Positions 2,214 to 14,030 of a stretch of 64,000 nt of DNA are shown here, one piece after another. The stretch lies in sequence record MW822008.1; one strand, given 5' to 3'. Position numbers and translations under genes: made by a program. The notes under the pieces were generated by a model, which was not told where the DNA came from, searched no databases, and saw only the letters and a program-made list of their open reading frames with translations. Each line of letters begins with the position of its first letter. Within the stretch, counting starts at the first letter, position 1. The DNA comes from Escherichia phage BF17.

Positions 2214-2447
2214 ATGAGTACTATTTTAACTGTTTCTCAATCCGTTGCACTGACTGACCTATTAAACGCTTTAAGCCGTTGCACTGAGGTTGGCTTGTTT
2301 GATGTGGTTGACGTTGCACCGGACGTTATTAATCATTTTTGTGATGCGATGGAAGAATGTAAGGAAGATGATAGCCGTATGATGGCGGTCGCCTTTGAGG
2401 AAGTACAGCCGGGTGAGATCAAAGGTTTACCAGTACTGAAAAAATAG
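2214..2447 (+). CDS. hypothetical protein (77 aa)
   Basis: ORF track; promoter + stem-loop upstream; weak AAGAG RBS. Confidence 0.7.
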   Translation: MSTILTVSQSVALTDLLNALSRCTEVGLFDVVDVAPDVINHFCDAMEECKEDDSRMMAVAFEEVQPGEIKGLPVLKK

Positions 2448-2450
2448 TAC

Positions 2451-2478
2451 TTGCAAACTAAGTTTAAAAGCGTATAAT
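2451..2478 (+). promoter_or_regulatory. sigma70 promoter with 5' stem-loop
   Basis: TTGCAA 2451-2456, TATAAT 2473-2478. Confidence 0.7.
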
Positions 2479-2529
2479 ACTTTCTATCAGGTGGTGAATA
2501 GTTCCCCACTATATAAGAGGATTAAAAAA

Positions 2530-2769
2530 ATGGCTAAATCAAAAATGTTCTTAGGTCACAAAAACAAAACTCATTGGAATGTAAGCCTTTGGATTAATAA
2601 CGATGAGTCATTGTACCGGTTGGCCCAGGACTTTATTAATGATAGCACTAATCGCAATGATGCGGCCCGTCATATGATGCTATTTTTAGAACAGACTGGA
2701 CAAGATAAAACACCGGACGGATTCAAATATAGCACTACTGCGATCCGTGCGGCGATGGTTGGAATGTAA
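2530..2769 (+). CDS. hypothetical protein (79 aa); paralog of 4570..4809
   Basis: ATG 2530 with RBS AAGAGGA; shares HKNKT(H/Q)WNVSLWINN...TPDGFKYSTTAIRAAMVGM with 4570 gene. Confidence 0.75.
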   Translation: MAKSKMFLGHKNKTHWNVSLWINNDESLYRLAQDFINDSTNRNDAARHMMLFLEQTGQDKTPDGFKYSTTAIRAAMVGM

Positions 2770-2782
2770 TAGAATTTATTTA

Positions 2783-2819
2783 AAGTACTATCATTTTTTT
2801 GCGATAGTACTTTATAATA
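2783..2819 (+). promoter_or_regulatory. Promoter with palindromic operator-like site AAGTACTATC...GATAGTACTT
   Basis: inverted repeat 2783-2792 / 2803-2812 followed by TATAAT 2814-2819. Confidence 0.55.
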
Positions 2820-2855
2820 GTGTTTTATTCATACACCAACGATAAGGGTAACAGC

Positions 2856-3122
2856 ATGAATATTAAGTATTTTGCGACGCGTGAACAAGCTCGGATCGCC
2901 GCACGCCAGGACGGGGCAACGTTTAAAGATATGGGAGCGGGATCGGCAAGTGGTGAACGTTGGGCCATTGTAAAGCGTAGTACCGCCAGATCATTACAGT
3001 ACTGGTTAGCGGCGTTAAAAAGTCCCGATAGTGTATCGCGTCGAGTGGTAGAAATAAAGCTCGACCGAAAGGGCAACCGCGTGACCGTGTACCGTACTAA
3101 AAAGATTGCAGTACTTGAATAA
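2856..3122 (+). CDS. hypothetical protein (88 aa); paralog of 15228..15623
   Basis: ATG 2856; shares FATREQARIAAR...FKDMG...RKGNRVTVY with 15228 gene. Confidence 0.75.
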   Translation: MNIKYFATREQARIAARQDGATFKDMGAGSASGERWAIVKRSTARSLQYWLAALKSPDSVSRRVVEIKLDRKGNRVTVYRTKKIAVLE

Positions 3123-3129
3123 AAAGTAC

Positions 3130-3157
3130 TTGCAAACTATGTTTAATGGCGTATAAT
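3130..3157 (+). promoter_or_regulatory. sigma70 promoter with 5' stem-loop
   Basis: TTGCAA 3130-3135, TATAAT 3152-3157, hairpin AGCGGGAAcactTCCCGCC. Confidence 0.7.
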
Positions 3158-3209
3158 GTTTTACATCGAGAGCGGGAACACTTCCCGCCTATAACCTGGA
3201 GTAATAAAA

Positions 3210-3440
3210 ATGACTAATATGTATATGACTGAAGTTAAAACCGTAAAAGATACTACCACGAATAAAACTACTTACTTACAGCGGATCTGCGGTGTATGGC
3301 AACGTATCAGCAAATCAAAGTACTTTAAATTAACATCATATGCAAACCGTTCGGATTCATTCAGTACTGAAATAAAAGGTAATAAAGTACACCAATACGG
3401 CACTTATTATTATTATAGCCTGGACGCGATTGCAGTATAA
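3210..3440 (+). CDS. hypothetical protein (76 aa)
   Basis: ORF track; RBS GGAG 3198-3201. Confidence 0.7.
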   Translation: MTNMYMTEVKTVKDTTTNKTTYLQRICGVWQRISKSKYFKLTSYANRSDSFSTEIKGNKVHQYGTYYYYSLDAIAV

Positions 3441-3470
3441 GCAGTTTACAAATCTTTACAATTGCCGGTA

Positions 3471-3550
3471 TTGACTTATTTTGTCAGTACTGGCATAATG
3501 TATTCATTGGCAGATAAGCCGTAGCCCATAGGGTGCGGGAGTGTATCTAT
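3471..3550 (+). promoter_or_regulatory. Promoter (TTGACT-17-CATAAT) plus conserved transcribed element GCCCATAGGGTGCGGGAGTGTATC
   Basis: TTGACT 3471-3476, CATAAT 3494-3499, element about 3524-3550; no ORF downstream. Confidence 0.55.
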
Positions 3551-3563
3551 AGAAAAAGTAGTT

Positions 3564-3643
3564 TATTACAGTTACAATTGTGCACCCGGTGGGTTAGCTG
3601 TTGTCATGGGGTATATTATGCCAGTACTTGATAATGCTGTCAA
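3564..3643 (-). promoter_or_regulatory. Convergent minus-strand promoter (TTGACA-17-CATAAT) plus conserved element ACCCACCGGGTGCACAA
   Basis: minus-strand -35 at 3638-3643, -10 at 3615-3620, element about 3575-3595; faces the 3471 promoter. Confidence 0.55.
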
Positions 3644-3688
3644 TACTTTTTTTACTATTCAGTACTGAAAACTATTTTTAAAAAGTAC

Positions 3689-3716
3689 TTGCAAACTATG
3701 TTTAAAGGCGTATAAT
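3689..3716 (+). promoter_or_regulatory. sigma70 promoter P1 upstream of structured leader
   Basis: TTGCAA 3689-3694, TATAAT 3711-3716. Confidence 0.65.
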
Positions 3717-3721
3717 GTTTT

Positions 3722-3806
3722 ACATCAGGACGGGGAACGAAATAAGTAACTCCCCGTTAAGTAGCCCAGGAGTAAGGCACACGAAAAACTCCCCTGATAA
3801 AATAGT
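3722..3806 (+). ncRNA. Conserved structured leader / candidate small RNA between tandem promoters (copy 1)
   Basis: about 85% identical to 14031-14114; hairpin CGGGGA...TCCCCG with compensatory change in copy 2. Confidence 0.4.
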
Positions 3807-3834
3807 TTGACAAATGTTTTTAAAAGCGTATAAT
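3807..3834 (+). promoter_or_regulatory. sigma70 promoter P2 (TTGACA-16-TATAAT)
   Basis: TTGACA 3807-3812, TATAAT 3829-3834. Confidence 0.65.
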
Positions 3835-3866
3835 ACTTACATCAACTACTGAATGAGGGTTACAAA

Positions 3867-4478
3867 ATGAAAACTATCACTACTACTACTTTCGTTATGG
3901 ATTTTTCTGAATTGAACGCAGAACAAAAAACGTCAGCTATCGAACTGGTTCGGGAACGTGAAAAAAACTTAAACGATGATTATTTTTCTGAAAGTGAAAT
4001 TGAATACTATAAAGAAACAGTACTACCGGAATATGGCATTAATGACGCTGATTTACGTTTCAGTGGCTTTTGGTCCCAGGGTGACGGTGCATCAATCAGT
4101 ACTGACCACGTTGACGCAGTGAAGTTTTTACGCAAGGTAAGAGCATTAACTAAGTATCGCTCAATCCGTCACTTGCTGAATGAAGATGATTTGGCGATGA
4201 GTGTAAAGCGTTCTCACTCCCACTACTCGCATGAAAACACTGTAAGCGGGTACATTGAATCGGCTTACACTGATTTAACCGCAAAACAAGAAACGTTAGT
4301 TAATGAGCTTGAGGAACTACTCACTGAAACTATTCGTGAATTATCCCGCAAGTTGTACCGTGATTTAGAGAATGCATATGAGGATCAATTCACTACTGAA
4401 AACATTACGGCACTGATTGAGGGTAACGAATATCAATTCAATGTTATTGATGGCGTAGTAGAATCAATCGAATATTAA
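3867..4478 (+). CDS. hypothetical acidic protein (203 aa)
   Basis: ORF track; RBS GAGGG; largest module-1 ORF after the kinase-like gene. Confidence 0.75.
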   Translation: MKTITTTTFVMDFSELNAEQKTSAIELVREREKNLNDDYFSESEIEYYKETVLPEYGINDADLRFSGFWSQGDGASISTDHVDAVKFLRKVRALTKYRSIRHLLNEDDLAMSVKRSHSHYSHENTVSGYIESAYTDLTAKQETLVNELEELLTETIRELSRKLYRDLENAYEDQFTTENITALIEGNEYQFNVIDGVVESIEY

Positions 4479-4491
4479 TTTAAAAAAGTAC

Positions 4492-4519
4492 TTGCAAACT
4501 AAGTTTAAAAGCGTATAAT
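4492..4519 (+). promoter_or_regulatory. sigma70 promoter with 5' stem-loop
   Basis: TTGCAA 4492-4497, TATAAT 4514-4519, hairpin GCGGGGAgtggTTCCCCGC. Confidence 0.7.
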
Positions 4520-4569
4520 ACTTTATATCGAGGCGGGGAGTGGTTCCCCGCTCAAACGAGGATTTAAAA

Positions 4570-4809
4570 ATGGCTAGTTCTAAAACTTACAACGGGCACA
4601 AAAACAAAACTCAATGGAATGTAAGCCTTTGGATTAATAACGGTGAGTCATTGTATCGGCTTGCACAAAGTTGTATCGCACAAAGTAGAACTAAAGATAT
4701 TGCAGCGGAATGTATGTACCGCAGATTAAAAGCCAACGGTACTACTACAACGCCGGACGGTTTTAAGTATAGCACTACTGCGATCCGTGCTGCAATGGTT
4801 GGAATGTAA
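4570..4809 (+). CDS. hypothetical protein (79 aa); paralog of 2530..2769
   Basis: ATG 4570, RBS GAGGA. Confidence 0.75.
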   Translation: MASSKTYNGHKNKTQWNVSLWINNGESLYRLAQSCIAQSRTKDIAAECMYRRLKANGTTTTPDGFKYSTTAIRAAMVGM

Positions 4810-4866
4810 TATTCAGTACTGAGATAATGGCGGGTAATAGTTCCCGCCTTTACTGAGGGTTATCTA

Positions 4867-5127
4867 ATGAGTAAAGTAATAAAGTACAATGTGTTAAGCA
4901 AATCATTGTCTATCAGTGAATGCACCGATGGTTTTTGGATGTACGATGAAACGCGTGGCATGAATTTAGCTATGCGTGCAAAAACTGCTGAGGCGGCGTA
5001 TATTCAAGCACTGGAATACTACCAGGAACGTTTAAAGGAAGTAGAAGAAGATTATAAAAGCCTCAAAGCGAAAGTAGATCATTTCGTCGGTCAATTCATC
5101 GAGGAAGACGACGACAAACAATATTGA
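4867..5127 (+). CDS. hypothetical protein (86 aa)
   Basis: ORF track; RBS GAGGG; upstream stem-loop GGCGGGtaatagttCCCGCC. Confidence 0.7.
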   Translation: MSKVIKYNVLSKSLSISECTDGFWMYDETRGMNLAMRAKTAEAAYIQALEYYQERLKEVEEDYKSLKAKVDHFVGQFIEEDDDKQY

Positions 5128-5135
5128 AAAAGTAC

Positions 5136-5163
5136 TTGCAATTAGTTTTCAGTACTGTATAAT
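5136..5163 (+). promoter_or_regulatory. sigma70 promoter with 5' stem-loop
   Basis: TTGCAA 5136-5141, TATAAT 5158-5163, hairpin GGGAGAAatggTTCTCCC. Confidence 0.7.
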
Positions 5164-5213
5164 GGTTTACATCAAAGGGAGAAATGGTTCTCCCTGGTAA
5201 TGAGGAAAATAAA

Positions 5214-5435
5214 ATGGCTAATATCACTACTCTTTCCCAACTGGAAGCACTGGTTAAATCTATGCGGGAACATGCCGACAAAATCGGCGTACAAGATCCA
5301 GCCGTTTGCTTCTGCGACGAATTGAATGATGATACCCTGGTAATAGCAGAAGTCCAGGACGTTTCTAACTATTCATCGCGTTACACTGGCGGCGTAGCAA
5401 ATAAAGGTGACTTCTGTTTATACCTTACAAAATAA
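5214..5435 (+). CDS. hypothetical protein (73 aa)
   Basis: ATG 5214, RBS GAGG 5202-5205. Confidence 0.75.
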   Translation: MANITTLSQLEALVKSMREHADKIGVQDPAVCFCDELNDDTLVIAEVQDVSNYSSRYTGGVANKGDFCLYLTK

Positions 5436-5438
5436 CAA

Positions 5439-5471
5439 CGCGGGGAGATAATAACTCCCCGTTACTTTTTC
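5439..5471 (+). terminator. Rho-independent terminator
   Basis: hairpin CGGGGAGataataaCTCCCCG followed by T-run. Confidence 0.7.
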
Positions 5472-5502
5472 AGTACTGAATCATTTAATAGACGGATCTA
5501 TG

Positions 5503-5573
5503 CACCCGGTGGGTTAGTGACTGTTTCGTCTTGATGTAGTAATTATGCCAGTACTGGATGCACTTGTCAACAA
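5503..5573 (-). promoter_or_regulatory. Minus-strand promoter (TTGACA-17-CATAAT) plus conserved ACCCACCGGGTGCATAG element
   Basis: -35 at 5568-5573, -10 at 5545-5550, element about 5503-5518; no minus-strand ORF. Confidence 0.5.
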
Positions 5574-5603
5574 CTATTTTTCAAATACTTTTTATTAAAA
5601 TAC

Positions 5604-5631
5604 TTGCAATTAGTTTTTAAACGCGTATAAT
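5604..5631 (+). promoter_or_regulatory. sigma70 promoter with 5' stem-loop
   Basis: TTGCAA 5604-5609, TATAAT 5626-5631. Confidence 0.7.
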
Positions 5632-5678
5632 GTTTTGCATAGGGGGAGCGGTTCCCCTGGTAACTAAGGAATAATAAA

Positions 5679-5915
5679 ATGCTTGAACAAATCAAATCAA
5701 CGTCTTCGAATGTAACGGGAACGGTAGCACACTTTACTAGTGATGAATCGCGGGGCGTTCCCTATTGTGCTGTACATGTAAACACTGAGGGTAACTACTG
5801 GTTTACGGTTTACGGATCATATTCATTTGGACGGCCAGGGCATCAAAAAATTCTGGATAAAGTACAACCAACGGGTAAAAATATCACTGCTGAAATGTTT
5901 TATAAAAAATCATAA
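5679..5915 (+). CDS. hypothetical protein (78 aa)
   Basis: ORF track; RBS AAGGA. Confidence 0.75.
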   Translation: MLEQIKSTSSNVTGTVAHFTSDESRGVPYCAVHVNTEGNYWFTVYGSYSFGRPGHQKILDKVQPTGKNITAEMFYKKS

Positions 5916-5920
5916 AGTAC

Positions 5921-5948
5921 TTGATAATAGTTTTTAGTACTGTATAAT
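5921..5948 (+). promoter_or_regulatory. sigma70 promoter with 5' stem-loop
   Basis: TTGATA 5921-5926, TATAAT 5943-5948, hairpin GGGGGAGCGGTTCCCCC. Confidence 0.65.
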
Positions 5949-5999
5949 ATTTTACATCGCAAGGGGGAGCGGTTCCCCCTGGTAACTAAGGATAATCAA

Positions 6000-6299
6000 A
6001 TGAAAATTGCAATCATCGCCCTGGCTTTATCTGTTTCCTCTTTCGCTGTTAATGCGTCATTAGATGTAAGTAGTGAAAAATTCATTCAGTGCACTGTTGC
6101 AATGACCGATGAAAGTACTGGCGAGATTGTTTTAAAGGATTTAGAGATCCAGCCGGAAGCATTTAAAAACGGGCCGTTCCATGAAGAAGACGAAAAAGGT
6201 AGCACGACAATTTATTACGATGCAAGTACTAAACGCGGTTCGGTCACTGTTATGGATACTGAGAAAGTAACTCATACTGGCGTTATTAATTGCCGTTGA
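6000..6299 (+). CDS. secreted/periplasmic hypothetical protein (99 aa) with N-terminal signal peptide
   Basis: MKIAIIALALSVSSFAVNA-S: hydrophobic core plus AxA-like cleavage site. Confidence 0.75.
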   Translation: MKIAIIALALSVSSFAVNASLDVSSEKFIQCTVAMTDESTGEIVLKDLEIQPEAFKNGPFHEEDEKGSTTIYYDASTKRGSVTVMDTEKVTHTGVINCR

Positions 6300-6320
6300 T
6301 ATATACTACGGGGTAACATC

Positions 6321-6551
6321 ATGACTAAGCGAATTGTTTTACTTAACGAAAGCAGTACTACACAACTACTTAACGCCGTGCATTATGATATTGAAACGAG
6401 CGTTAATCTTATCAGTACTGTAGTACTGTTGGACACTGGAAAGGTCGCCAATGATAAAGCGATTGCAGGTATACTAACGGATCTTGAGCCTGGTAGCAGT
6501 GCATCAATAACGTTAAATGGTAAAGTGTTTAACATTTTACTTACTGATTAA
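6321..6551 (+). CDS. hypothetical protein (76 aa)
   Basis: ORF track; RBS GGGG; same operon as 6000 gene. Confidence 0.65.
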   Translation: MTKRIVLLNESSTTQLLNAVHYDIETSVNLISTVVLLDTGKVANDKAIAGILTDLEPGSSASITLNGKVFNILLTD

Positions 6552-6555
6552 GTAC

Positions 6556-6586
6556 ATAGCCCACCTGGTGGGCTTTTTTGTTTTTG
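6556..6586 (+). terminator. Rho-independent terminator
   Basis: hairpin AGCCCACCtGGTGGGCT then TTTTTTG. Confidence 0.7.
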
Positions 6587-6633
6587 TAGTATCGTAGTAC
6601 TGAGATACTTTGAAAATAGTTTTAAAAAAGTAG

Positions 6634-6661
6634 TTGACATTACCGCAGAAAAGCGTAGAAT
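6634..6661 (+). promoter_or_regulatory. sigma70-like promoter (TTGACA-16-TAGAAT) with long diverged leader
   Basis: TTGACA 6634-6639, TAGAAT 6656-6661; leader 6668-6770 related to the 3722/14031 leaders. Confidence 0.6.
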
Positions 6662-6784
6662 GTATTACATCAAGACGGGGAGCACTAAGTAGACCGCCAG
6701 TAAGTCGAACGAAAAACTGGACACGTCGAGAAAACTTTGATACACTAATAAACGTAAACTAAACTTTAATTGAGGATTTATAAA

Positions 6785-7267
6785 ATGGCTAATGTAAAAT
6801 CATTCATCAAAGCACTGGTAGCAAATGAAACTAACGTCGCGGCTGAGATCCTGGCTGAACTGGATAACGATACCATGAAAGCGGTACGCAATAATTTTAA
6901 CATCGCGTACAGTACTGCGAAAGAACTACAAGCAAATAAAGCGGCAGAAATTGAAGCGGCAAAGGCGGCCCGTGAAGCAGAACTACAAGCAACAATCGAA
7001 AGTATTCAGGCGGCAGTAGTTGGATTGGATCTGGAAGTAGTTACAGAGATGGCACAAAAAGCCCTGGCGGTTAAGTATGGGGAAGACAAGCCAGAAGTAA
7101 AAGCCAAAAAATGGATTCAGGAACGCGTAGCGGTAGTACTGGACAACGGGGAAGAATATCTGATTCCGGTGCGTGGTAACTGCATTGCGGTAGTACTGGA
7201 CGCGATTAACTCCAGTGGTATGACTCGCGAGGAATGGATCGAAGCTCATCGCAAAGTTGAAGCATAA
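6785..7267 (+). CDS. hypothetical protein (160 aa), Ala/Glu-rich helical N-terminal part
   Basis: ATG 6785 with RBS GAGG 6772-6775. Confidence 0.75.
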   Translation: MANVKSFIKALVANETNVAAEILAELDNDTMKAVRNNFNIAYSTAKELQANKAAEIEAAKAAREAELQATIESIQAAVVGLDLEVVTEMAQKALAVKYGEDKPEVKAKKWIQERVAVVLDNGEEYLIPVRGNCIAVVLDAINSSGMTREEWIEAHRKVEA

Positions 7268-7286
7268 CAATTAAAGTACTGAATCA

Positions 7287-7318
7287 CTAGCCCACTTATA
7301 CAGTGGGCTTTTTTGTGT
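7287..7318 (+). terminator. Rho-independent terminator
   Basis: hairpin AGCCCACTtatacAGTGGGCT then TTTTTTG. Confidence 0.75.
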
Positions 7319-7324
7319 TTATCG

Positions 7325-7440
7325 TTTACCAGGCCACCAGCACCGCCTAGAAACGATTCTAACGCATTAAACTGATTATCTGATGCATCACCCTAGCTGG
7401 TGGCGTTAAGGTCGTTAGAATGCGATTGAGTGCGTTTAAA
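7325..7440. repeat. Large imperfect palindrome with Chi octamers on both arms and TTAGAATGCG motifs
   Basis: CCACCAGC 7334-7341 and GCTGGTGG 7396-7403; ATTCTAACGCATT / CGTTAGAATGCG inside. Confidence 0.5.
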
Positions 7441-7468
7441 GTATTTTACAAAAAGTAATAAAAAGTAC

Positions 7469-7496
7469 TTGCACGATTAAGAGATTAGCGTATAAT
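7469..7496 (+). promoter_or_regulatory. sigma70 promoter with 5' stem-loop
   Basis: TTGCAC 7469-7474, TATAAT 7491-7496, hairpin GGGGGAAacggTTCTCC. Confidence 0.7.
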
Positions 7497-7551
7497 GTTT
7501 TACATCGAGAGGGGGAAACGGTTCTCCTTCCAAATCAAAGGAATCAAAACA

Positions 7552-7779
7552 ATGGCTATTATCATTACTCGCGTATCTGGTACTACTGGCAACGAACAAG
7601 TAGTTGCAGTCATTACCAACAAGGAAGGTGCGGAATTGCAAAATGCAATGAATACCTGGGCCGTTAATGAGTTCGGTCAGTGGGCAAGTGTAGCATACAT
7701 TGAAACCTATCAAGTGCCGTCGATTAGTTTAACTGATTTGGGCGTTGAGCGTATCCTTTGCCTTGATGAATTAAATTAA
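7552..7779 (+). CDS. hypothetical protein (75 aa)
   Basis: ATG 7552, RBS AGGA 7538-7541. Confidence 0.75.
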   Translation: MAIIITRVSGTTGNEQVVAVITNKEGAELQNAMNTWAVNEFGQWASVAYIETYQVPSISLTDLGVERILCLDELN

Positions 7780-7787
7780 AAAAGTAC

Positions 7788-7815
7788 TTGCAAAGTAAAT
7801 CGAATAAAGTATAAT
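7788..7815 (+). promoter_or_regulatory. sigma70 promoter with 5' stem-loop
   Basis: TTGCAA 7788-7793, TATAAT 7810-7815, hairpin GGGGAGAAaatgGTTCTCCCC. Confidence 0.7.
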
Positions 7816-7865
7816 ACATTACATCAAGGGGAGAAAATGGTTCTCCCCACTACAAGGAAACTAAA

Positions 7866-8009
7866 ATGAAAACTTGTCAATGTGGTCAGAAATCTATTAC
7901 GGGTTTAAAGCGGGGCGTTGCTCTTTGCCAGTACCATTATAATTTACAAGTATGGGGTAAAGAATGGGCCGACCAGGTGGAAGCAGCAAAGAAAGCAAAA
8001 AGTAAGTAA
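7866..8009 (+). CDS. small Cys-containing protein (47 aa; CQCG...CQYHY), below ORF-track cutoff
   Basis: translated by hand: MKTCQCGQKSITGLKRGVALCQYHYNLQVWGKEWADQVEAAKKAKSK; RBS AAGGAA; promoter upstream. Confidence 0.6.
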   Translation: MKTCQCGQKSITGLKRGVALCQYHYNLQVWGKEWADQVEAAKKAKSK

Positions 8010-8022
8010 AAATATTATCACA

Positions 8023-8057
8023 GTACTATTGACATAGTTTGATAGTACTGGCATAAT
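8023..8057 (+). promoter_or_regulatory. Palindromic promoter cassette AGTACTAT-TGACATAGTTTG-ATAGTACT (copy 1)
   Basis: TTGACA 8029-8034, CATAAT 8052-8057; about 60 nt (8007-8070) exactly repeated at 8299-8362. Confidence 0.7.
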
Positions 8058-8088
8058 AGATTTTATCAAGACGACTAAGGAAAACAAA

Positions 8089-8301
8089 ATGGCTATCATT
8101 ACAAAAATCAAAGTAAACAAATCACTGGTTAAACTTGAACAAGTGAAAGCAGGTTATAAAGTATCGTGGTGCGGTATGTATCGGATGTTCGCAGATATTG
8201 ATGAAGCGATCAATTATTACAGCGACACGGTTAAAAACTTTGTTCGTGCTGATGTGGTTATGGCAGTGGCAGCACATAAAGCAGCGAAAGAAAGTAAGTA
8301 A
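8089..8301 (+). CDS. hypothetical protein (70 aa); paralog of 11203..11382
   Basis: ORF track; RBS AAGGAA; MAII(T/A)K start shared with 11203 gene. Confidence 0.75.
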   Translation: MAIITKIKVNKSLVKLEQVKAGYKVSWCGMYRMFADIDEAINYYSDTVKNFVRADVVMAVAAHKAAKESK

Positions 8302-8314
8302 AAATATTATCACA

Positions 8315-8349
8315 GTACTATTGACATAGTTTGATAGTACTGGCATAAT
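8315..8349 (+). promoter_or_regulatory. Palindromic promoter cassette (copy 2, exact repeat of copy 1)
   Basis: TTGACA 8321-8326, CATAAT 8344-8349. Confidence 0.7.
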
Positions 8350-8390
8350 AGATTTTATCAAGACAACATATTAATTTAAGGAATACAAAA

Positions 8391-8714
8391 ATGGCTAAAA
8401 CTATCATTAACACCGTTTCCCTGGCTGCAATCCGTGCAATCAATGTTGACGGTAAACGTTGGACTGATTCATATGGCAATACTTATCATTCTTGTCATGT
8501 AAGCGTTGAACTGGATAACGGTTTGAATGATCTGGCGGTTGAATCATTTACTTATGGCTATGAAGATGCATATCAACAAACGGCGTTAGATCTCTTAAAG
8601 GAATCAGTAGACGGGCTTAATACTGATGAAACCTCCCTTACTCGTTTGTGCAATGATCTTAATATCCCGTTGCATTGTACTGTACAGAATGTTAAACGCA
8701 AAAAAGATCTTTAA
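8391..8714 (+). CDS. hypothetical protein (107 aa); paralog of 14809..15132
   Basis: shares RWTDS(Y/H)GNTYHSC(H/Y)VS and C-terminal RKKD(L/M) with 14809 gene. Confidence 0.75.
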   Translation: MAKTIINTVSLAAIRAINVDGKRWTDSYGNTYHSCHVSVELDNGLNDLAVESFTYGYEDAYQQTALDLLKESVDGLNTDETSLTRLCNDLNIPLHCTVQNVKRKKDL

Positions 8715-8794
8715 TTAGCTTTACTTTATGCAGATACTTTGATATAGTGTCTGCATAGGGGAAAGAAATTAAATTAACTTAAGAGGATCGTATA

Positions 8795-9064
8795 ATGAAA
8801 AATATCAGTACTTTAATCGATGCAGGTACACATGTTCGGCGGTCTATGGTTGCAACCAGTACTACAAAACAAGTAGCGAGCGGTTATCTTGTATTTGTGC
8901 ACGATGGTAAACTCCTGGAACGTTCAATCAATTTTGATGTTAAAAACAATTGCCGTTTTATTATCTTTAAGCGTGAACAATATAAAATTGATTTACCAGC
9001 GAAGCCCATAAGCGGGGCGTACAACGTGCAATCATTGTTTGAGCGTCAACCTTACACCTATTAA
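8795..9064 (+). CDS. hypothetical protein (89 aa)
   Basis: ORF track; strong RBS AAGAGGA; upstream inverted repeat ATGCAGATACT...AGTGTCTGCAT. Confidence 0.7.
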   Translation: MKNISTLIDAGTHVRRSMVATSTTKQVASGYLVFVHDGKLLERSINFDVKNNCRFIIFKREQYKIDLPAKPISGAYNVQSLFERQPYTY

Positions 9065-9115
9065 TCAAAACATCGTTAGCGGTCGTTTAAGGCCGCTTAT
9101 ATTGGGGATTATACC

Positions 9116-9388
9116 ATGAACGTTAATCAAGTACTGAATGAGATCGAAAGCATCATTAAACCGATGAAGCGTACTGATGCTATGTTAACACCGGAAGAAA
9201 GCCGCCTATATGAGCGTTACAGCGTCGAACAAGTCCAGGCAATGGCTATGGCTACGCCAGCCGTTAAACCGCCTGAGAATGCGTTACAGGACGTTACAGG
9301 GGATTATATCATTAATCCAGTACTAGGGAAGATGCCGCCAATCACCGAAGAACAAAAAGACTATTTGAGTCAGTACTTAAAAGGTTAA
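9116..9388 (+). CDS. hypothetical protein (90 aa)
   Basis: ORF track; RBS GGGG. Confidence 0.65.
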   Translation: MNVNQVLNEIESIIKPMKRTDAMLTPEESRLYERYSVEQVQAMAMATPAVKPPENALQDVTGDYIINPVLGKMPPITEEQKDYLSQYLKG

Positions 9389-9393
9389 TTAAT

Positions 9394-9603
9394 ATGCTTA
9401 CTGTACAGGATAAGATCGACATCTTAAAGGTTAATATGTATGTGATTGATGCCGTACCTGGTAAAGTATTTGCATACGATGATTCTAATCGCAGTCCTTT
9501 CTATTGTAGTCATGTAGTTGGATACGTGCCGTTGGCGTATGTTATCGAAAGAGTGGTTGATGCAGCATACAATCATTTTTTAGAAAATAATACTTGCAAT
9601 TAG
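9394..9603 (+). CDS. hypothetical protein (69 aa)
   Basis: ORF track; 5 nt after previous stop. Confidence 0.6.
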   Translation: MLTVQDKIDILKVNMYVIDAVPGKVFAYDDSNRSPFYCSHVVGYVPLAYVIERVVDAAYNHFLENNTCN

Positions 9604-9621
9604 TTTTTAAACGCGTATAAT
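9594..9621 (+). promoter_or_regulatory. sigma70 promoter with 5' stem-loop
   Basis: TTGCAA 9594-9599, TATAAT 9616-9621, hairpin GGGGAGAAatgaTTCTCCCC. Confidence 0.7.
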
Positions 9622-9672
9622 GTTTTACATGAAGGGGAGAAATGATTCTCCCCACTAATTAAGGAATATGAA

Positions 9673-9819
9673 ATGAAAGCATCAAAAAAGAGTAATACCA
9701 AGAAAGCATGTTCACCTTTCGCTGGGGTATTCCCTTTACGTTTCGTTGATGAAGTGGTTTCCTACCCGCTGGGCCTTACTCCTGAGATGGTAGAAAGTTT
9801 GCGTAAATCTAAAAAATAA
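9673..9819 (+). CDS. small basic protein (48 aa), below ORF-track cutoff
   Basis: hand-translated MKASKKSNTKKACSPFAGVFPLRFVDEVVSYPLGLTPEMVESLRKSKK; RBS AAGGAA. Confidence 0.55.
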   Translation: MKASKKSNTKKACSPFAGVFPLRFVDEVVSYPLGLTPEMVESLRKSKK

Positions 9820-9823
9820 TACT

Positions 9824-9850
9824 TGCAATTAGTTTTCAGTACTGTATAAT
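9824..9850 (+). promoter_or_regulatory. sigma70 promoter with 5' stem-loop
   Basis: TTGCAA 9824-9829, TATAAT 9845-9850. Confidence 0.7.
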
Positions 9851-9900
9851 AGTTTACATGAAGGGGAGAAATGATTCTCCCCAATAACAGGAGAAACAAA

Positions 9901-10053
9901 ATGAAACAATACAACGCTCGGTTTGATGTTACTATCGGCAACGGCAAAGGTCAATTCTCTTTCAGTACTCGCCGCAGTTATACAGAAAACTTCCTGCGAA
10001 ATTGTGCACTGACCGCCGCACAAATTAAACATTACTTCCAGGCTAAAAAATGA
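9901..10053 (+). CDS. hypothetical protein (50 aa)
   Basis: ATG 9901 with RBS CAGGAG; track start 9871 lies in leader. Confidence 0.6.
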   Translation: MKQYNARFDVTIGNGKGQFSFSTRRSYTENFLRNCALTAAQIKHYFQAKK

Positions 10054-10139
10054 AATCATTAGCTTATTACAGTTCGGCGGTGATCGGTGCATTGATCGCG
10101 GCATTGTTAGTAACCTATCTATTCTTTATGGTGATTTAA
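10050..10139 (+). CDS. tiny hydrophobic single-TM peptide (29 aa)
   Basis: ATGA overlap with upstream stop; MKSLAYYSSAVIGALIAALLVTYLFFMVI. Confidence 0.35.
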   Translation: MKSLAYYSSAVIGALIAALLVTYLFFMVI

Positions 10140-10259
10140 ATGAATCCTAACGGTTTAATTTACAGTACTACTAAAACGAAAGCAGATAAAGCGAAAGTAA
10201 AGGAGTACATTAAGCAAGGCATGACGCGAAAGGCGGCAGTACTGAAAGCTAAAAAATAA
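10140..10259 (+). CDS. small basic protein (39 aa)
   Basis: ATG adjacent to previous TAA; MNPNGLIYSTTKTKADKAKVKEYIKQGMTRKAAVLKAKK. Confidence 0.35.
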   Translation: MNPNGLIYSTTKTKADKAKVKEYIKQGMTRKAAVLKAKK

Positions 10260-10267
10260 ATGAAAAA

Positions 10268-10350
10268 AGTGGTTGACTTCGGTCAGCCATTTTGCTATTA
10301 TATATTCATTGAGAGATAGCTCACTAGCCCACCGGGTGCATAAGTGTATC
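10268..10350 (+). promoter_or_regulatory. Composite module: terminator-like hairpin overlapping promoter (TTGACT-17-TATTAT) plus conserved element GCCCACCGGGTGCATAAGTGTATC
   Basis: hairpin 10271-10288 with T-run; TTGACT 10273-10278; TATTAT 10296-10301; element 10327-10350. Confidence 0.55.
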
Positions 10351-10394
10351 TATTATATAAGTATTGAGTACTGAGAACTATTTTTAAAAAGTAC

Positions 10395-10422
10395 TTGCAA
10401 ACTATCTCAATTGGCGTATAAT
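10395..10422 (+). promoter_or_regulatory. sigma70 promoter with 5' stem-loop
   Basis: TTGCAA 10395-10400, TATAAT 10417-10422. Confidence 0.7.
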
Positions 10423-10473
10423 GTTTTACATCGAGAGGGGGAACGGTTTCCCCTGGTAATAAGGAAACGAATC

Positions 10474-10815
10474 ATGACTATCTCAATTGCTCAATCTAAC
10501 TTTGAAAATGAAATCATCGCCCAGGCACTGCGTTTAAATGATGGTCGGGCCGAAATTAATTACGGTTTCAATTCAGGCGGTTGTGAAAACTATCAGTACT
10601 TTGTAACTGCTGATGGCGGTGTCCTGGGCATCAATACCGTTATTGTAAACATTCAGAAAATTAATTTCAATGATCCAGACGATAGCCAGTTTTACATTGT
10701 AGGCGTAGACGTGAACTATGAGGATGACTCACTAACTGATGATCACACTGGCGAGAAGTTAGAAAGTGCATACGGTGAAGATGATTATCAGTCCGGTCCA
10801 GAAGATTTTGAATAA
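10474..10815 (+). CDS. hypothetical protein (113 aa), acidic C-terminus
   Basis: ATG 10474 with RBS AAGGAA. Confidence 0.75.
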   Translation: MTISIAQSNFENEIIAQALRLNDGRAEINYGFNSGGCENYQYFVTADGGVLGINTVIVNIQKINFNDPDDSQFYIVGVDVNYEDDSLTDDHTGEKLESAYGEDDYQSGPEDFE

Positions 10816-10828
10816 TATTAAAAAATAG

Positions 10829-10857
10829 TTTGACAATAGATTATAGTACTGTATAAT
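10829..10857 (+). promoter_or_regulatory. sigma70 promoter (TTGACA-17-TATAAT) with 5' stem-loop
   Basis: TTGACA 10829-10834, TATAAT 10852-10857. Confidence 0.7.
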
Positions 10858-10906
10858 AAGTTACATCAAGGGGAGAATAGTTCTCCCCACTAACAGAGAA
10901 AACAAA

Positions 10907-11119
10907 ATGGCTAATATCTGCACTGTACTGAAAAATGCAAAACAAGTTTTATTTTCTGACCACGATTATTTTAATAAAGATATTACAGGCGTTCGGAATA
11001 TCAAAGATGTAAAAAGTGTTATGGGTATCTATTGCAATATGAAACGTGTTGGAACGTTCGGCGACAAAGTACTATACCAGGCAGGGGATTACAATTTTAC
11101 ACTGACTATCATTAACTAA
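10907..11119 (+). CDS. hypothetical protein (70 aa)
   Basis: ORF track; RBS GAGAAAA. Confidence 0.7.
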   Translation: MANICTVLKNAKQVLFSDHDYFNKDITGVRNIKDVKSVMGIYCNMKRVGTFGDKVLYQAGDYNFTLTIIN

Positions 11120-11132
11120 AAATATTATCACA

Positions 11133-11167
11133 GTACTATTGACATAGTTTGATAGTACTGACATAAT
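11133..11167 (+). promoter_or_regulatory. Palindromic promoter cassette (copy 3)
   Basis: TTGACA 11139-11144, CATAAT 11162-11167, flanked by AGTACTAT / ATAGTACT. Confidence 0.7.
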
Positions 11168-11202
11168 AACTTTTATCAACTACACTACTAAGGAATTAAA
11201 AA

Positions 11203-11382
11203 ATGGCTATCATCGCAAAAACTGAAATCGTTGGTCTGGATTCTATCATCATGACGTTTGAAGATCAAAAAGGTATGTATGTAGTTTCATATGGTGATTA
11301 TGTTCGGGAGTATGAAACGGTAGACGAAGCCTTTGAAAGTTATATTCGCCAGGTGAATAAAGCATACGACGACTACCGCTAA
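11203..11382 (+). CDS. hypothetical protein (59 aa); paralog of 8089..8301
   Basis: hand-translated; RBS AAGGAA. Confidence 0.6.
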   Translation: MAIIAKTEIVGLDSIIMTFEDQKGMYVVSYGDYVREYETVDEAFESYIRQVNKAYDDYR

Positions 11383-11403
11383 AATATATTACCAGTACTA
11401 TTA

Positions 11404-11437
11404 AAGTTATTGACATAGTTTGATAGTACTGTATAAT
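11404..11437 (+). promoter_or_regulatory. Palindromic promoter cassette (copy 4)
   Basis: TTGACA 11410-11415, TATAAT 11432-11437. Confidence 0.7.
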
Positions 11438-11481
11438 AAGTTTTATAAACAGTAGTTAACTTAACCTAAGAGAGAAATAAA

Positions 11482-11625
11482 ATGATCGCACTGGATTCAT
11501 TCATCGACGCAGTACTGGCAAAAACTGGCGAGGATCTGACCGCAGAACAATACGCGATGATCGAGCAATGTCAGCAAAACGGTAAATCGGTGAAAGATAC
11601 TGTTAAGATTATCCGCAAGATGTAA
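11482..11625 (+). CDS. small protein (47 aa), below ORF-track cutoff
   Basis: hand-translated MIALDSFIDAVLAKTGEDLTAEQYAMIEQCQQNGKSVKDTVKIIRKM; RBS AGAGAAA. Confidence 0.55.
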   Translation: MIALDSFIDAVLAKTGEDLTAEQYAMIEQCQQNGKSVKDTVKIIRKM

Positions 11626-11631
11626 GATTAT

Positions 11632-11665
11632 AGCCCACTGGTTAACGCTGGTGGGCTTTAATCCT
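11632..11665 (+). terminator. Terminator-like hairpin containing a Chi octamer
   Basis: AGCCCAC...GTGGGCT stem; GCTGGTGG 11647-11654; weak T-run. Confidence 0.45.
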
Positions 11666-11730
11666 TTACCCTATACAATGTCAGTACTAAACCGTTTATC
11701 TCATTAGAATGCGTTACAGGACGTTTGACA

Positions 11731-11928
11731 ATGATTAGCATGAAATCAGTACAAAAACAAATAGAAACATTATCAAAAATTAAACGTAAACAGTACTCGT
11801 TAGAATATACAATCAATGGTAACTATCATCTAATGAAAGAGAATAATTTTATCGTCATTGATGAATCATTGCAAGTTATTAGTATAGTACTGAAAGCATT
11901 AATTAATGATAGAAAAAAATTAAAATAA
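11731..11928 (+). CDS. hypothetical protein (65 aa), AT-rich codon usage
   Basis: ATG 11731 (track start is TTG 11725); weak RBS; no promoter seen. Confidence 0.4.
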   Translation: MISMKSVQKQIETLSKIKRKQYSLEYTINGNYHLMKENNFIVIDESLQVISIVLKALINDRKKLK

Positions 11929-11932
11929 TCTA

Positions 11933-12013
11933 TTGACAATATCCTCCAGTACTGGCATAATACTTACATCAAGACGAGAACGTCACTAACCCATAGGGTG
12001 CACAAATGTAACT
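11933..12013 (+). promoter_or_regulatory. Promoter (TTGACA-17-CATAAT) plus conserved element ACCCATAGGGTGCACAAATGTAAC
   Basis: TTGACA 11933-11938, CATAAT 11956-11961, element 11988-12013. Confidence 0.55.
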
Positions 12014-12020
12014 GTATAAT

Positions 12021-12057
12021 ATTGATCAAAAAATGATCTGATCAATACTTGATCAAT
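12021..12057. promoter_or_regulatory. GATC cluster: 4 GATC sites in 31 bp, three as TGATCAA
   Basis: GATC at 12024, 12035, 12040, 12051 within the leader upstream of the TraR-like gene. Confidence 0.6.
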
Positions 12058-12259
12058 TTGCGTAAAGTAGTATAATTCTATGCAGTTGGTTAGACGAAAG
12101 GTTATGATTAGTAGTGCAAGTGTATAAAAATTTTCATGGTGTATCGTTCCGCACATATGGCAATGAATATGTGGTATCATGTGGATTGGAAAAAGTAAGA
12201 ACAAGTAATATTATTGTCGCATTACAGTACTATAGTATTTTTATAATGAGGTTAAAATA

Positions 12260-12517
12260 ATGGCTGTAGGATTCGCGAAAGATGGGGCCGAACAAGACGA
12301 GATTAACGCAGTGATTCAGGCCGCCGTTAACCACGCTAGAAAGCAAATTAACGCACAAATAGAATCACTGATACATTGCCTCGACTGCGGCGATATAATC
12401 CCTGAGAAACGACGCCAGGCCGTTAAGGGATGTAAGTACTGCATAACTTGCCAGGAGGATCATGATAGTACTTTTAAACGTCCCCCGCGTAATTGTTGGC
12501 ATAGATCTATGAGATAA
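12260..12517 (+). CDS. TraR/DksA-family C4 zinc-finger protein (85 aa)
   Basis: CLDCGDIIPEKRRQAVKGCKYCITCQ = C-x2-C-x13-C-x2-C-x2-C arrangement with IPE..RR typical of TraR; RBS GAGG. Confidence 0.75.
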   Translation: MAVGFAKDGAEQDEINAVIQAAVNHARKQINAQIESLIHCLDCGDIIPEKRRQAVKGCKYCITCQEDHDSTFKRPPRNCWHRSMR

Positions 12518-12523
12518 AAAGTA

Positions 12524-12552
12524 TTGACAGTACTATCCAGTAGTGTTATAGT
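12524..12552 (+). promoter_or_regulatory. sigma70 promoter (TTGACA-17-TATAGT) with 5' stem-loop
   Basis: TTGACA 12524-12529, TATAGT 12547-12552, hairpin AGGGGAAacatcTTCCCCT. Confidence 0.65.
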
Positions 12553-12598
12553 ACTTACATCAAGGGGAAACATCTTCCCCTACTAAGAGGAAATGAAA

Positions 12599-12787
12599 AT
12601 GGAAAACTTATCAAGTATTTTAGTACAAGATGATTTCGGTAATCCTGGAAGTGCTATCATTGTTCGGGGTAATAAAGCAACATTTGTTATTGCTGGTGGA
12701 CCTGTACAGCGTAGCATTAAAAACAATGCCGTTACTATTAATAATGTACGCTATCGCTTAGATAAAGAATTGATTCATAAACTGTAA
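12599..12787 (+). CDS. hypothetical protein (62 aa)
   Basis: ATG 12599 with RBS AGAGG (track start 12593 too close to RBS). Confidence 0.65.
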   Translation: MENLSSILVQDDFGNPGSAIIVRGNKATFVIAGGPVQRSIKNNAVTINNVRYRLDKELIHKL

Positions 12788-12814
12788 TATTAATTTAATA
12801 GAGGATAACAATAA

Positions 12815-13138
12815 ATGTACATTCATACTACTATCACAAAGGAAGTCCGTTGCCAGTTCGAAAGTATTCCGGGCGTATGTTTCATCACTGGTACGTTTTC
12901 CCCTGGTGATCGTGATAATCCAGTACTGTTACAATTACGCCATCCATCATGGGATAAAGCATTTGATCTACCGTTGAATGAATTCGCAACTACTGCTGAA
13001 AAGTACATTAAAAATATTCGCGAGAATGATCGACTATTCATTAATGCTTTCAGTGATTCCGCGTTAAGCGAGATCCACAGCGTATTGGTTGCAATCATGG
13101 AATCAATGGAGAAAACTAAATTCAAACAAGGTGAATAA
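12815..13138 (+). CDS. hypothetical protein (107 aa)
   Basis: ORF track; RBS AGAGGA. Confidence 0.7.
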   Translation: MYIHTTITKEVRCQFESIPGVCFITGTFSPGDRDNPVLLQLRHPSWDKAFDLPLNEFATTAEKYIKNIRENDRLFINAFSDSALSEIHSVLVAIMESMEKTKFKQGE

Positions 13139-13144
13139 AAACTA

Positions 13145-13172
13145 TTGACAAGATAATCTAGTACTGTATAAT
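13145..13172 (+). promoter_or_regulatory. sigma70 promoter (TTGACA-16-TATAAT) with 5' stem-loop
   Basis: TTGACA 13145-13150, TATAAT 13167-13172. Confidence 0.7.
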
Positions 13173-13221
13173 AAGTTACATGAAGGGGAGAAATGATTCT
13201 CCCCACTGAGAGGAAAGAAAA

Positions 13222-13434
13222 ATGCAAGGTCAACTAATCGTTCGTAAATGGTCTGATACTAACGCTAAACCGTGGGATGTACAATACATCGGACCGGATG
13301 GGGTATCACGTTATCAGCCTGGCGTAACGCATAGTACTGAGCAATATGCCGCCGCTCACCGCGAACGCCTGTTAGAATCCATGAAACAGGGATACGGTGA
13401 AAAATTCATTCAAGATCATTGGCTGAAAGATTAA
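13222..13434 (+). CDS. hypothetical protein (70 aa)
   Basis: ORF track; RBS GAGAGGAAA. Confidence 0.75.
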   Translation: MQGQLIVRKWSDTNAKPWDVQYIGPDGVSRYQPGVTHSTEQYAAAHRERLLESMKQGYGEKFIQDHWLKD

Positions 13435-13451
13435 TATAAGGAGTACAGCTT

Positions 13452-13544
13452 ATGCAAATGAATCCGATGATTATTGTGTTAGCTGTACTTATGATCATTC
13501 ATGCAATAGTAAAAGTATTAACGCAATCAGGAGTAATAAAATGA
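13452..13544 (+). CDS. tiny hydrophobic single-TM peptide (30 aa)
   Basis: RBS AAGGAG 13436-13441; MQMNPMIIVLAVLMIIHAIVKVLTQSGVIK. Confidence 0.4.
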   Translation: MQMNPMIIVLAVLMIIHAIVKVLTQSGVIK

Positions 13545-13714
13545 TTCAAGTAGAATTATCAGTACTGAAAGATCTGTTTTATCGGTTAGGTACTACTGGC
13601 GAGTATCCTAAAAGTGATACCGCAAAACTTTTTGTATCACTCGACTTATGGCAACGCGAACAATTAGTAATGTCCTGGCGTAAAGGTAAAGCAGATAGCG
13701 AGGTGAAAGCATGA
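13541..13714 (+). CDS. small protein (57 aa)
   Basis: ATGA overlap with upstream stop; RBS CAGGAG. Confidence 0.45.
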   Translation: MIQVELSVLKDLFYRLGTTGEYPKSDTAKLFVSLDLWQREQLVMSWRKGKADSEVKA

Positions 13715-13860
13715 AAGAATTCTTATTCGAAGTAGTGTTTCAAGGTGTCGGTAGTAACCAACTGATTCGCTCAAGTGGTTATAATGTTAACCAGGCATGG
13801 AATAACATTAAACAAATGTACCCGAACGCTATCACCTATCGCAACCCGAAAGAAGTTTAA
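13711..13860 (+). CDS. small protein (49 aa)
   Basis: ATGA overlap with upstream stop; RBS GAGG. Confidence 0.45.
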   Translation: MKEFLFEVVFQGVGSNQLIRSSGYNVNQAWNNIKQMYPNAITYRNPKEV

Positions 13861-13873
13861 AAATATTTGAAAA

Positions 13874-13952
13874 AGGGATTGACTCCGGTCAGTCCCTTTG
13901 CTATTATATACGCATAGAAACAAATCAGCCCACAGGGTGCATAAATGTATCT
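13874..13952 (+). promoter_or_regulatory. Composite module: bidirectional terminator-like hairpin overlapping promoter plus conserved element AGCCCACAGGGTGCATAAATGTATC
   Basis: hairpin GGGATTGACtccgGTCAGTCCC 13875-13896, TTGACT 13878-13883, element 13927-13952; Chi GCTGGTGG 13960-13967 just downstream. Confidence 0.55.
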
Positions 13953-14026: not shown

Positions 14027-14030
14027 GTTT

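Follow-up and report, generated by a model that had tools for sequence, protein, structure and literature searches.

What is the role of the short palindromic promoter segment that occurs twice, without a single difference, within positions 7,866 to 8,390 of a 64,000-nucleotide stretch of Escherichia phage BF17 (MW822008.1; this whole stretch is called the window below), and why does it recur upstream of genes that are unrelated to each other? The initial annotation had listed at least five copies, and suggested either that mobile regulatory cassettes shuffle small genes here or that the copies respond to a common repressor or activator. The anatomy of the sequences, the structure of the copies, the indel and replacement polymorphism and the motif statistics were read directly from the DNA, and lead us to conclude that the cassette is very probably one subfamily of the early promoters of Asteriusvirus phages, doubling as a recombination module similar to the promoter-early stem-loop (PeSL) cassettes.

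The exact duplication is 74 nt long (7999-8072 and 8291-8364), starts within the last codons of both upstream genes and has a repeat period of 292 nt. All the repeat positions given in the initial annotation hold, the exact repeat being longer than described there. In the first copy (+ strand, like all the copies and genes listed below), the stop codon (8007-8009) of gene 7866-8009 lies inside the repeat, and is followed by an A/T-rich tract (TAAGTAAAAATATTATCAC, upstream of the left arm) and by the promoter. The cassette thus comprises an outer stem TATTAT (8013-8018), a left arm CAGTACTAT (8021-8029) containing a first AGTACT box (8022-8027), a -35 element TTGACA (8029-8034), a right arm ATAGTACTG (8042-8050) containing a second AGTACT box (8044-8049), and, after a 17-nt spacer, a -10 element CATAAT (8052-8057) extended by TG (8049-8050, at -15/-14). 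The arms bracket the -35 element and abut the -10 element, and the palindrome therefore overlaps the core promoter. The start is predicted at about 8064-8065, which would give a leader of about 25 nt before the ATG at 8089, this being preceded by a Shine-Dalgarno sequence AAGGAA (8077-8082). The first copy scores 11/12 against the sigma70 consensus and the other copies 11-12/12, and the occurrence of such near-consensus elements directly 5' of the Shine-Dalgarno sequence and ATG of small genes argues in favor of the proposal that the cassettes act as promoters.

The second copy (8291-8364, 74/74 positions identical) is located upstream of an unrelated gene (8391-8714), and the gene lying between the two identical cassettes (8089-8301) encodes 70 amino acids and belongs to phrog_35559. 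A third copy (11109-11185), which is 86% identical to the reference copy and has the same -10 CATAAT, precedes gene 11203-11382. In a fourth, variant copy (11385-11446), upstream of gene 11482-11625, the arms CAGTACTAT and ATAGTACTG are present, the left arm lying 9 nt farther upstream, and the promoter consists of TTGACA, a 16-nt spacer and TATAAT. The fifth copy (18750-18826), which is 70% identical, carries the arms TCAGTACTAT and ATAGTACTGA and a weak -10 element ATGTAAT, and precedes gene 18837-19094. The 28-nt core AGTACTATTGACATAGTTTGATAGTACT is found with no mismatches at 8022, 8314 and 11132 and with one mismatch at 18773, and was not matched in any of 100 dinucleotide-preserving shuffles. 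The genes located 3' of the five copies are mutually unrelated: they were assigned to distinct PHROG families, all of unknown function, and gave no Pfam match. Related palindromic elements occur at 15135-15190 (11-bp arms TAAAGTACTAT and ATAGTACTTTA around a -35 TTGACA, with a -10 TATAAT; upstream of gene 15219-15623), at 2775-2825 (12-bp arms TAAAGTACTATC and GATAGTACTTTA, -10 TATAAT; upstream of gene 2820-3122) and at 335-395 (a promoter within an AGTACT inverted repeat having the 11-bp arms CAGTACTGAAT and ATTCAGTACTG, -35 TTGACA at 366 and -10 TATAAT). Genes 2820-3122 and 15219-15623 are paralogues (35% identity, E = 1.6e-18), to which the initial annotation had attributed promoters with the same architecture as the cassettes; this is true of the palindromic arms at both loci, but no recognisable -35 element is present at 2775-2825.

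The window is about 94% identical to the Asteriusvirus jumbo coliphages Ecwhy_1, fEgEco12, 121Q, PBECO4 and G17, and is the left end of a 121Q/PBECO4-like Asteriusvirus genome. Since it is colinear with fEgEco12 from the first base, and the direct terminal repeat of fEgEco12 is 20,993 bp long, positions 1 to about 20.6 kb would, judging from this homology, correspond to the terminal repeat. Within this stretch, the array at 1600-20600 comprises about 50 small genes, all lying on the + strand, together with about 46 sigma70-type promoter-like sites. Ten of these sites match the sigma70 consensus at 12/12 positions and many others at 10-11/12, on the + strand and upstream of gene starts. They fall into several sequence subfamilies, one of which is the cassette under study. 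In most of the subfamilies, the predicted start is followed at a distance of about 10 nt by a G+C-rich hairpin GGGGAGAAnnGGTTCTCCCC (about -14 kcal/mol) that has no T-run behind it (for example at 7828-7848, 1715-1735 and 10436-10455); a role in stabilising the 5' leader would suit this hairpin better than one in termination. The cassette has no such hairpin and carries the AGTACT palindrome around the -35 element instead. In the Klebsiella phage Muenster, which belongs to another genus, some of the G+C-rich leader hairpins are centred on AGTACT.

Data published on related phages support the reading of these sites as early promoters served by the host polymerase. The early region of the RaK2-like phage CBB is rich in RpoD-like promoters accompanied by UP-like elements, and three more are located on the terminal repeat (Buttimer et al., 2017, PMC5259590). 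PA5oct, which has no phage RNA polymerase, is sensitive to rifampicin and shows TTGAC/TATAATA motifs at the mapped start sites (PMC7318152). Both phages resemble the window in having host-type promoters before short hypothetical early genes and in depending on the host RNA polymerase, but only 18-32 promoters were listed in these studies, with no mention of AGTACT boxes, palindromic subfamilies or gene shuffling (PMC5259590, PMC7318152).

The cassettes coincide with places where closely related genomes differ. As the scan of IMG/VR with the 28-nt core yielded 121Q as the only match, the GenBank phage collection was taken in its place. In a five-genome alignment, the window and 121Q show the succession cassette, gene 8089-8301, cassette, where G17 has a single cassette and no gene. 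The window, 121Q, Turkey5, Ecwhy_1 and the PBECO4 group all have this gene. In G17, Sharanji, fEgEco12, JNE01 and others, the match is about 293 nt shorter here, as compared with the repeat period of 292 nt, which is consistent in Sharanji, fEgEco12, JNE01 and the others with the same putative deletion of the gene together with one cassette. Since Ecwhy_1, which carries the gene, and fEgEco12, in which it is apparently absent, share 97% average nucleotide identity, the event must be recent. In phAPEC6, gene 8391-8714 is replaced by a strongly divergent allele, and the divergence extends from directly after the cassette to the last codons of the gene. Other promoter subfamilies are involved in two further cassette-flanked indels: in fEgEco12 and G17, the promoter at 17572-17670 is duplicated and its copies enclose an additional module of 492 nt, and 121Q lacks gene 18205-18468 due to a 335-nt deletion, a length equal to the spacing of two TTGCAT-type cassettes.

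When the distinct homology endpoints were counted across three relatives, 27 out of 34 breakpoints were found to lie between -50 and +75 with respect to the -10 element of a promoter, an interval accounting for 29% of the region (p = 2e-9). Several homology islands 60-110 nt long consist of the promoter alone. In addition, a 5-kb stretch of the Vequintavirinae phage A7_1 (OP795442.1, 145 kb) carries the same promoter families as the window: between A7_1 600-3300 and window 2554-11221, at least seven promoter-gene modules are shared (72-88% identity), and the homologues of the window modules are permuted, in the order 2554, 4746, 7490, 10895, 8026, 4570 and 10555, with the junctions at promoters. 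This arrangement indicates that promoter-gene modules have apparently been exchanged between Asteriusvirus and Vequintavirinae, two unrelated groups of coliphages. The presence or absence of a gene between identical copies, the sharply bounded divergent allele, the clustered breakpoints and the permuted modules of A7_1 all bear out the suggestion that mobile regulatory cassettes shuffle small genes in this region, and the breakpoint count points to a positive answer to the question raised in the initial annotation as to whether the cassettes mark recombination breakpoints.

This behavior closely resembles that of the PeSL cassettes described in the T4-type phages RB49/phi1, nt-1/KVP40 and PST/T4 (Arbiol et al., 2010, PMC2839356; Comeau et al., 2014, PMC4122927). 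Genomes of these phages carry about 50 PeSLs, the stem-loop of which can take five different positions, those between or over the -35 and -10 boxes among them, and an orphan gene located between two PeSLs in RB49 is replaced by a single PeSL in phi1 (PMC2839356, PMC4122927). Both the PeSLs and the elements of the window are repeats of about 60-100 nt combining an upstream stop codon, an A/T-rich tract, a sigma70-like promoter, a stem-loop and the Shine-Dalgarno sequence and ATG of a small orphan gene; both occur in dozens of copies in plastic early regions, and in both cases a gene flanked by two cassettes corresponds to a single cassette in a relative. Since anatomy and behavior both match, the cassettes can be regarded as a known phenomenon in a new group of phages. 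There are some differences, however. The stem in the window is A/T-rich and composed of AGTACT boxes, whereas that of the PeSLs has the form Gn-loop-Cn, and in most of the other promoter subfamilies of the window it is the 5' leader, past the predicted start, that holds the G+C-rich hairpin. In RB49/phi1, promoter and terminator activities as well as mini-circles have been demonstrated by experiment, whereas the corresponding properties of the window cassettes are putative. Lastly, the PeSLs were described in T4-type (Tevenvirinae-like) genomes, and the RaK2-like phages are not mentioned in the PeSL papers (PMC2839356, PMC4122927), whereas the present genome is that of a 350-kb RaK2-like jumbo phage whose array lies within a direct terminal repeat about 21 kb long; as an Asteriusvirus, it shows T4-like kinship only via the homologous portal and capsid proteins in the CBB phylogenies. 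This is a taxonomic limit of the PeSL description and not a mechanistic one.

As regards the stem-loop, the RNA fold of 8010-8062 has an inner stem of 12 bp and an outer one of 6 bp (TATTAT/ATAATA), the palindrome thus extending beyond what was initially described. Its free energy amounts to -16.8 kcal/mol versus -5.8 +/- 2.1 in the case of shuffled sequences (z = -5.2), none of the 200 shuffles being equally stable, and the hairpins of the variant copies range from -13.9 to -17.7 kcal/mol. The arms are composed of two AGTACT hexamers plus flanking bases, and as AGTACT is itself palindromic, any pair of copies makes an inverted repeat. In the cassette, however, complementarity runs past AGTACT, with AT inward, C/G outward and the outer stem in addition. 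The arms are invariant across six differing spacer sequences in three phage groups (Asteriusvirus, Alcyoneusvirus and Vequintavirinae); in A7_1, the variant AGCGCTAT/ATAGTGCT alters both sides of one pair. This extended complementarity, the retention of the arms at 2775-2825 where the -35 element has been lost, and the paired variant of A7_1 suggest that the potential to form a hairpin or a cruciform matters too. A scan of Rfam gave nothing at the cassettes, the sole match being a sub-threshold Trp_leader at the terminator 7252-7316.

The following course of events, in which the promoter activity, its timing, the function of the hairpin and the mechanism of recombination are deduced from the above data, can be proposed. 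After injection, the host sigma70 RNA polymerase would start at the near-consensus sites of the terminal repeat, most of which lie directly 5' of small genes; in the cassette subfamily it would recognize TTGACA and, after the 17-nt spacer, TGgCATAAT, and begin transcription shortly before the start codon. Since the same 60-100-nt cassette is directly repeated between unrelated genes, it provides portable homology: recombination between two copies would remove or add a promoter-plus-gene module, and recombination between phages would replace the downstream gene while its expression was kept. The AGTACT-box hairpin, which is located upstream of the predicted start of the cassette itself, might act as an attenuator on read-through transcripts coming from the upstream gene. 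Alternatively or additionally, the palindrome may be a pair of sites for an AGTACT reader, and these two roles are compatible. If this proposal is correct, PeSL-type modular shuffling extends from the T4-type phages to the early region in the terminal repeat of 350-kb jumbo phages, which would help to account for the variable, orphan-rich early regions of these phages and would provide a rule for annotating them, namely one promoter cassette per module.

Several points weigh against the proposal, or at least against parts of it. The strength of the promoters, their start sites and any terminator activity are predictions. In PBECO4, the upstream gene 7866-8009 is missing together with cassette 1, and the junction lies at AAAATG start regions, outside the cassette. 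As promoters fill much of the intergenic space, the clustering of the breakpoints is not fully separable from selection for intergenic breakpoints. The cassette hairpin is A/U-rich, and since the T-run ATTTTAT following it is also part of the start-site consensus GTTTTACAT, its role as a terminator is uncertain. Since the arms never vary, covariation cannot support the hairpin structure, and the covariant pair AGCGCTAT/ATAGTGCT of A7_1 is only suggestive as possible structural support.

The less ordinary part of the finding is the AGTACT hexamer, which is enriched 15-fold and selectively maintained. It is the most strongly over-represented hexamer in the window (252 observed versus 17 expected with a first-order model, z = 55), and the extended motif CAGTACTG occurs 63 times versus 0.7 expected. 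The flanks of AGTACT are reverse-complement symmetric, C being preferred at -1 and G at +1. The 165 sites located inside coding sequences occur in all three frames and in varied peptide contexts, with a spacing of about 270 nt, while 20454-25721 and 28375-36672 are free of AGTACT. When synonymous codons were shuffled without changing the proteins, 24.6 +/- 3.7 sites were obtained at 36.6-64 kb versus the 89 observed (a 3.6-fold excess), and 15.5 versus the 56 observed in the terminal repeat. The idea that the coding sites might simply reflect a peptide motif conserved among paralogues was discarded, as only about 7 of the 40 frame-0 sites fall in (E)EYFQxSTV and the rest are diverse.

AGTACT likewise ranks first among the hexamers of a 50-kb late/structural region of 121Q (99 versus 13.7 expected), of the terminal repeats of fEgEco12 and 121Q, and of that of Muenster (161 versus 5.5); no enrichment was seen at the Vequintavirinae locus sampled. 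Per kb, there are about 2 copies in the 50-kb 121Q region and 4-7 in the terminal repeat, versus 0.06 in E. coli K-12 (3 copies in a 50-kb sample); AGTACT is about 65 times denser in the phage than in this sample. When the window was compared with 121Q, 87% of the sites were found to be intact versus a background of 61% (81% versus 58% in genes, 91% versus 67% outside genes); at 36.6-64 kb, the figures were 94% versus 88% (p = 0.06), 121Q being too similar there for the comparison to have much power. Among the promoter-like sites, AGTAC abuts the -35 element in 20 of the 46 in the window and 19 of the 45 in Muenster, and GTACT occurs in the distal spacer in 18 of the 46 and 29 of the 45, respectively. 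The early-promoter consensus of Muenster is AAGTAC-TTGACA-N9-AGTACTG-TATAAT, with a variable spacer, and the cassette architecture CAGTACTATTGACA-N7-ATAGTACTG recurs in this phage with other spacers. It follows that AGTACT is a motif under selection; it occurs in all the Asteriusvirus and Alcyoneusvirus stretches sampled, and also forms part of the early promoters.

No published description of this motif was found in the searchable literature, either with AGTACT combined with jumbo phage or with the strings AGTACTTGACA, AGTACTTGCAA and AGTACTGTATAAT. In E. coli, the SlmA-binding sites GTGAGTACTCAC and the trp operator GTACTAGTTAACTAGTAC contain AGTACT or GTACT/AGTAC. The identification of the AGTACT sites as SlmA sites was rejected, however, since the G that the SlmA site requires at -1 is, in the terminal repeat, the rarest base at this position (4 of 135 sites); at 36.6-64 kb it occurs at 15 of 100 sites. 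ACTAGT showed no enrichment among the top hexamers. At 25264-36463, another word, AGTACA, is enriched on the + strand (54 versus 7.8 expected) and includes a tandem run cAGTACAGTACAGTACAc (32778-32793); since its complement TGTACT is not enriched, this signal looks strand-specific there. Several long AGTACT inverted repeats, such as that with the 13-bp arms 617-629 and 680-692, are present in the gene-free 1.7 kb at the left end of the genome.

These data bear on the best of the competing explanations, according to which the arms function as operators: a phage or host protein acting as a dimer would read AGTACT, preferably in the form CAGTACTG, and switch the early promoters together, for instance at the early-to-middle transition. 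We regard this as possible, although less likely than not. It would explain why AGTAC at the -35 element and GTACT in the distal spacer recur at fixed positions while the spacer between the boxes varies, as well as the enrichment and the symmetric flanks of the motif, its conservation above the background with respect to 121Q, and the 12-bp arms retained at 2775-2825. The operators of LexA and the phage repressors likewise form an inverted repeat over the -35 to -10 region of several promoters; but the half-site in the window is a 6-bp self-palindrome occurring in hundreds of copies, including copies in genes. The distance between the boxes ranges from 20 to 24 bp, and the complementarity running past AGTACT would be needless for a reader of a symmetric hexamer. 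Sites occurring about every 270 nt in genes, and in the late/structural region of 121Q, are not what is expected of a promoter-specific operator. The description of the inverted repeat as operator-like in the initial annotation therefore stands insofar as the palindrome overlaps the core promoter, but not as regards specificity, as 165 of the 252 AGTACT sites lie in coding sequences. Likewise, a trans-acting factor is possible, but since AGTACT is enriched far beyond the cassettes, any common repressor or activator would have to be a global AGTACT reader rather than a cassette-specific one, and among about 40 terminal-repeat proteins scanned with Pfam (these phages have about 600 genes) no DNA-binding domain and no candidate regulator was found. 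It is plausible that the arms might serve as protein-binding boxes for a global reader of this kind. We put forward only tentatively, and with more doubt than belief, the broader idea that RaK2-like jumbo phages have a global DNA-reading system, as yet undescribed, which recognizes AGTACT, preferably as CAGTACTG. If this were so, a reader from the phage or the host could tag the DNA of the phage as self and switch all the early promoters of the array at once, and its strongest double sites would be the palindromic cassettes.

It is improbable that AGTACT might be the target of a DNA modification, such as adenine methylation by a phage methyltransferase, coupling the early promoters to the modification state. 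Positions 60839-61360 of the window do encode a 173-amino-acid Dam-family N6-adenine methyltransferase (PF05869, E = 2e-31), two methyltransferases are encoded by RaK2, the DNA of which is resistant to methylation-sensitive enzymes, and the density of AGTACT in the phage relative to E. coli K-12 would be in keeping with this explanation. Nothing links the PF05869 enzyme to AGTACT, however, and the RaK2 data are indicative of Dam, Dcm and CpG-type methylation; ten restriction enzymes cut fEgEco12 DNA as predicted, and there is no obvious reason for a modification target to be enriched 15-fold. GATC is under-represented in the window (131 versus 204 expected).

That the copies are passive by-products of tandem gene duplication, with a functionless palindrome, seems very unlikely. 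The short distance of 292 nt between the exact copies, and the spacer sequences common within promoter subfamilies, which are a sign of common descent, would fit this picture, but the genes 3' of the copies show no relationship to one another, the arms stay constant across the three phage groups although the spacer diverges, and the AGTACT sites are conserved above the background. Although imperfect palindromes flank single-gene modules and the gain and loss of single genes is observed, it is hardly credible that a site-specific recombinase could act on the cassettes in the way known from the attC sites of integron gene cassettes, given that no integrase-like protein was found among the about 40 terminal-repeat proteins scanned (Pfam, PHROGs), that the junctions are scattered from -42 to +71 around the -10 element, some of them lying at the start codon, and that several unrelated promoter subfamilies behave alike. 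The reading of the cassettes as early promoters doubling as PeSL-like modules is preferred.

Some other features of the window deserve mention. The gene-free 1.7 kb at the left end also contains, at 754-913, 8-nt periodic repeats of the forms GGCTAGAT, GGCTAAAC and GTCTGGAA. Right past the inferred end of the terminal repeat begins an array (20700-29000) of many paralogous genes encoding about 70 amino acids each, about 212 nt apart, with a conserved LGTNYQE-like motif; it is almost AGTACT-free up to 25.7 kb. Gene 12260-12517 encodes a DksA/TraR C4 zinc finger (E = 1.6e-10) and gene 15686-15940 a ParE-like toxin domain (E = 6e-11), while gene 16487-17128 gave a weak protein-kinase match, a kinase being annotated in Muenster and fEgEco12.

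Lastly, a repeated element of about 100 nt occurs in the window at 13859-13960, 17127-17235, 19094-19195, 10253-10360, 3469-3560 and 11931-12025, and in the Muenster stretch at 8895-9020, 14005-14130, 17160-17285 and 18720-18845. Most of the copies carry a -35 element TTGACT inside a hairpin AAAGGGATTGACTCCGGTCAGTCCCTTT, which shows compensatory changes between copies. The 3' part consists of about 30 variable nucleotides followed by the near-invariant CCCACAGGGTGC....TGTATCTAT, with no open reading frame directly after it. This element, which is conserved in two genera, could be a small RNA gene.

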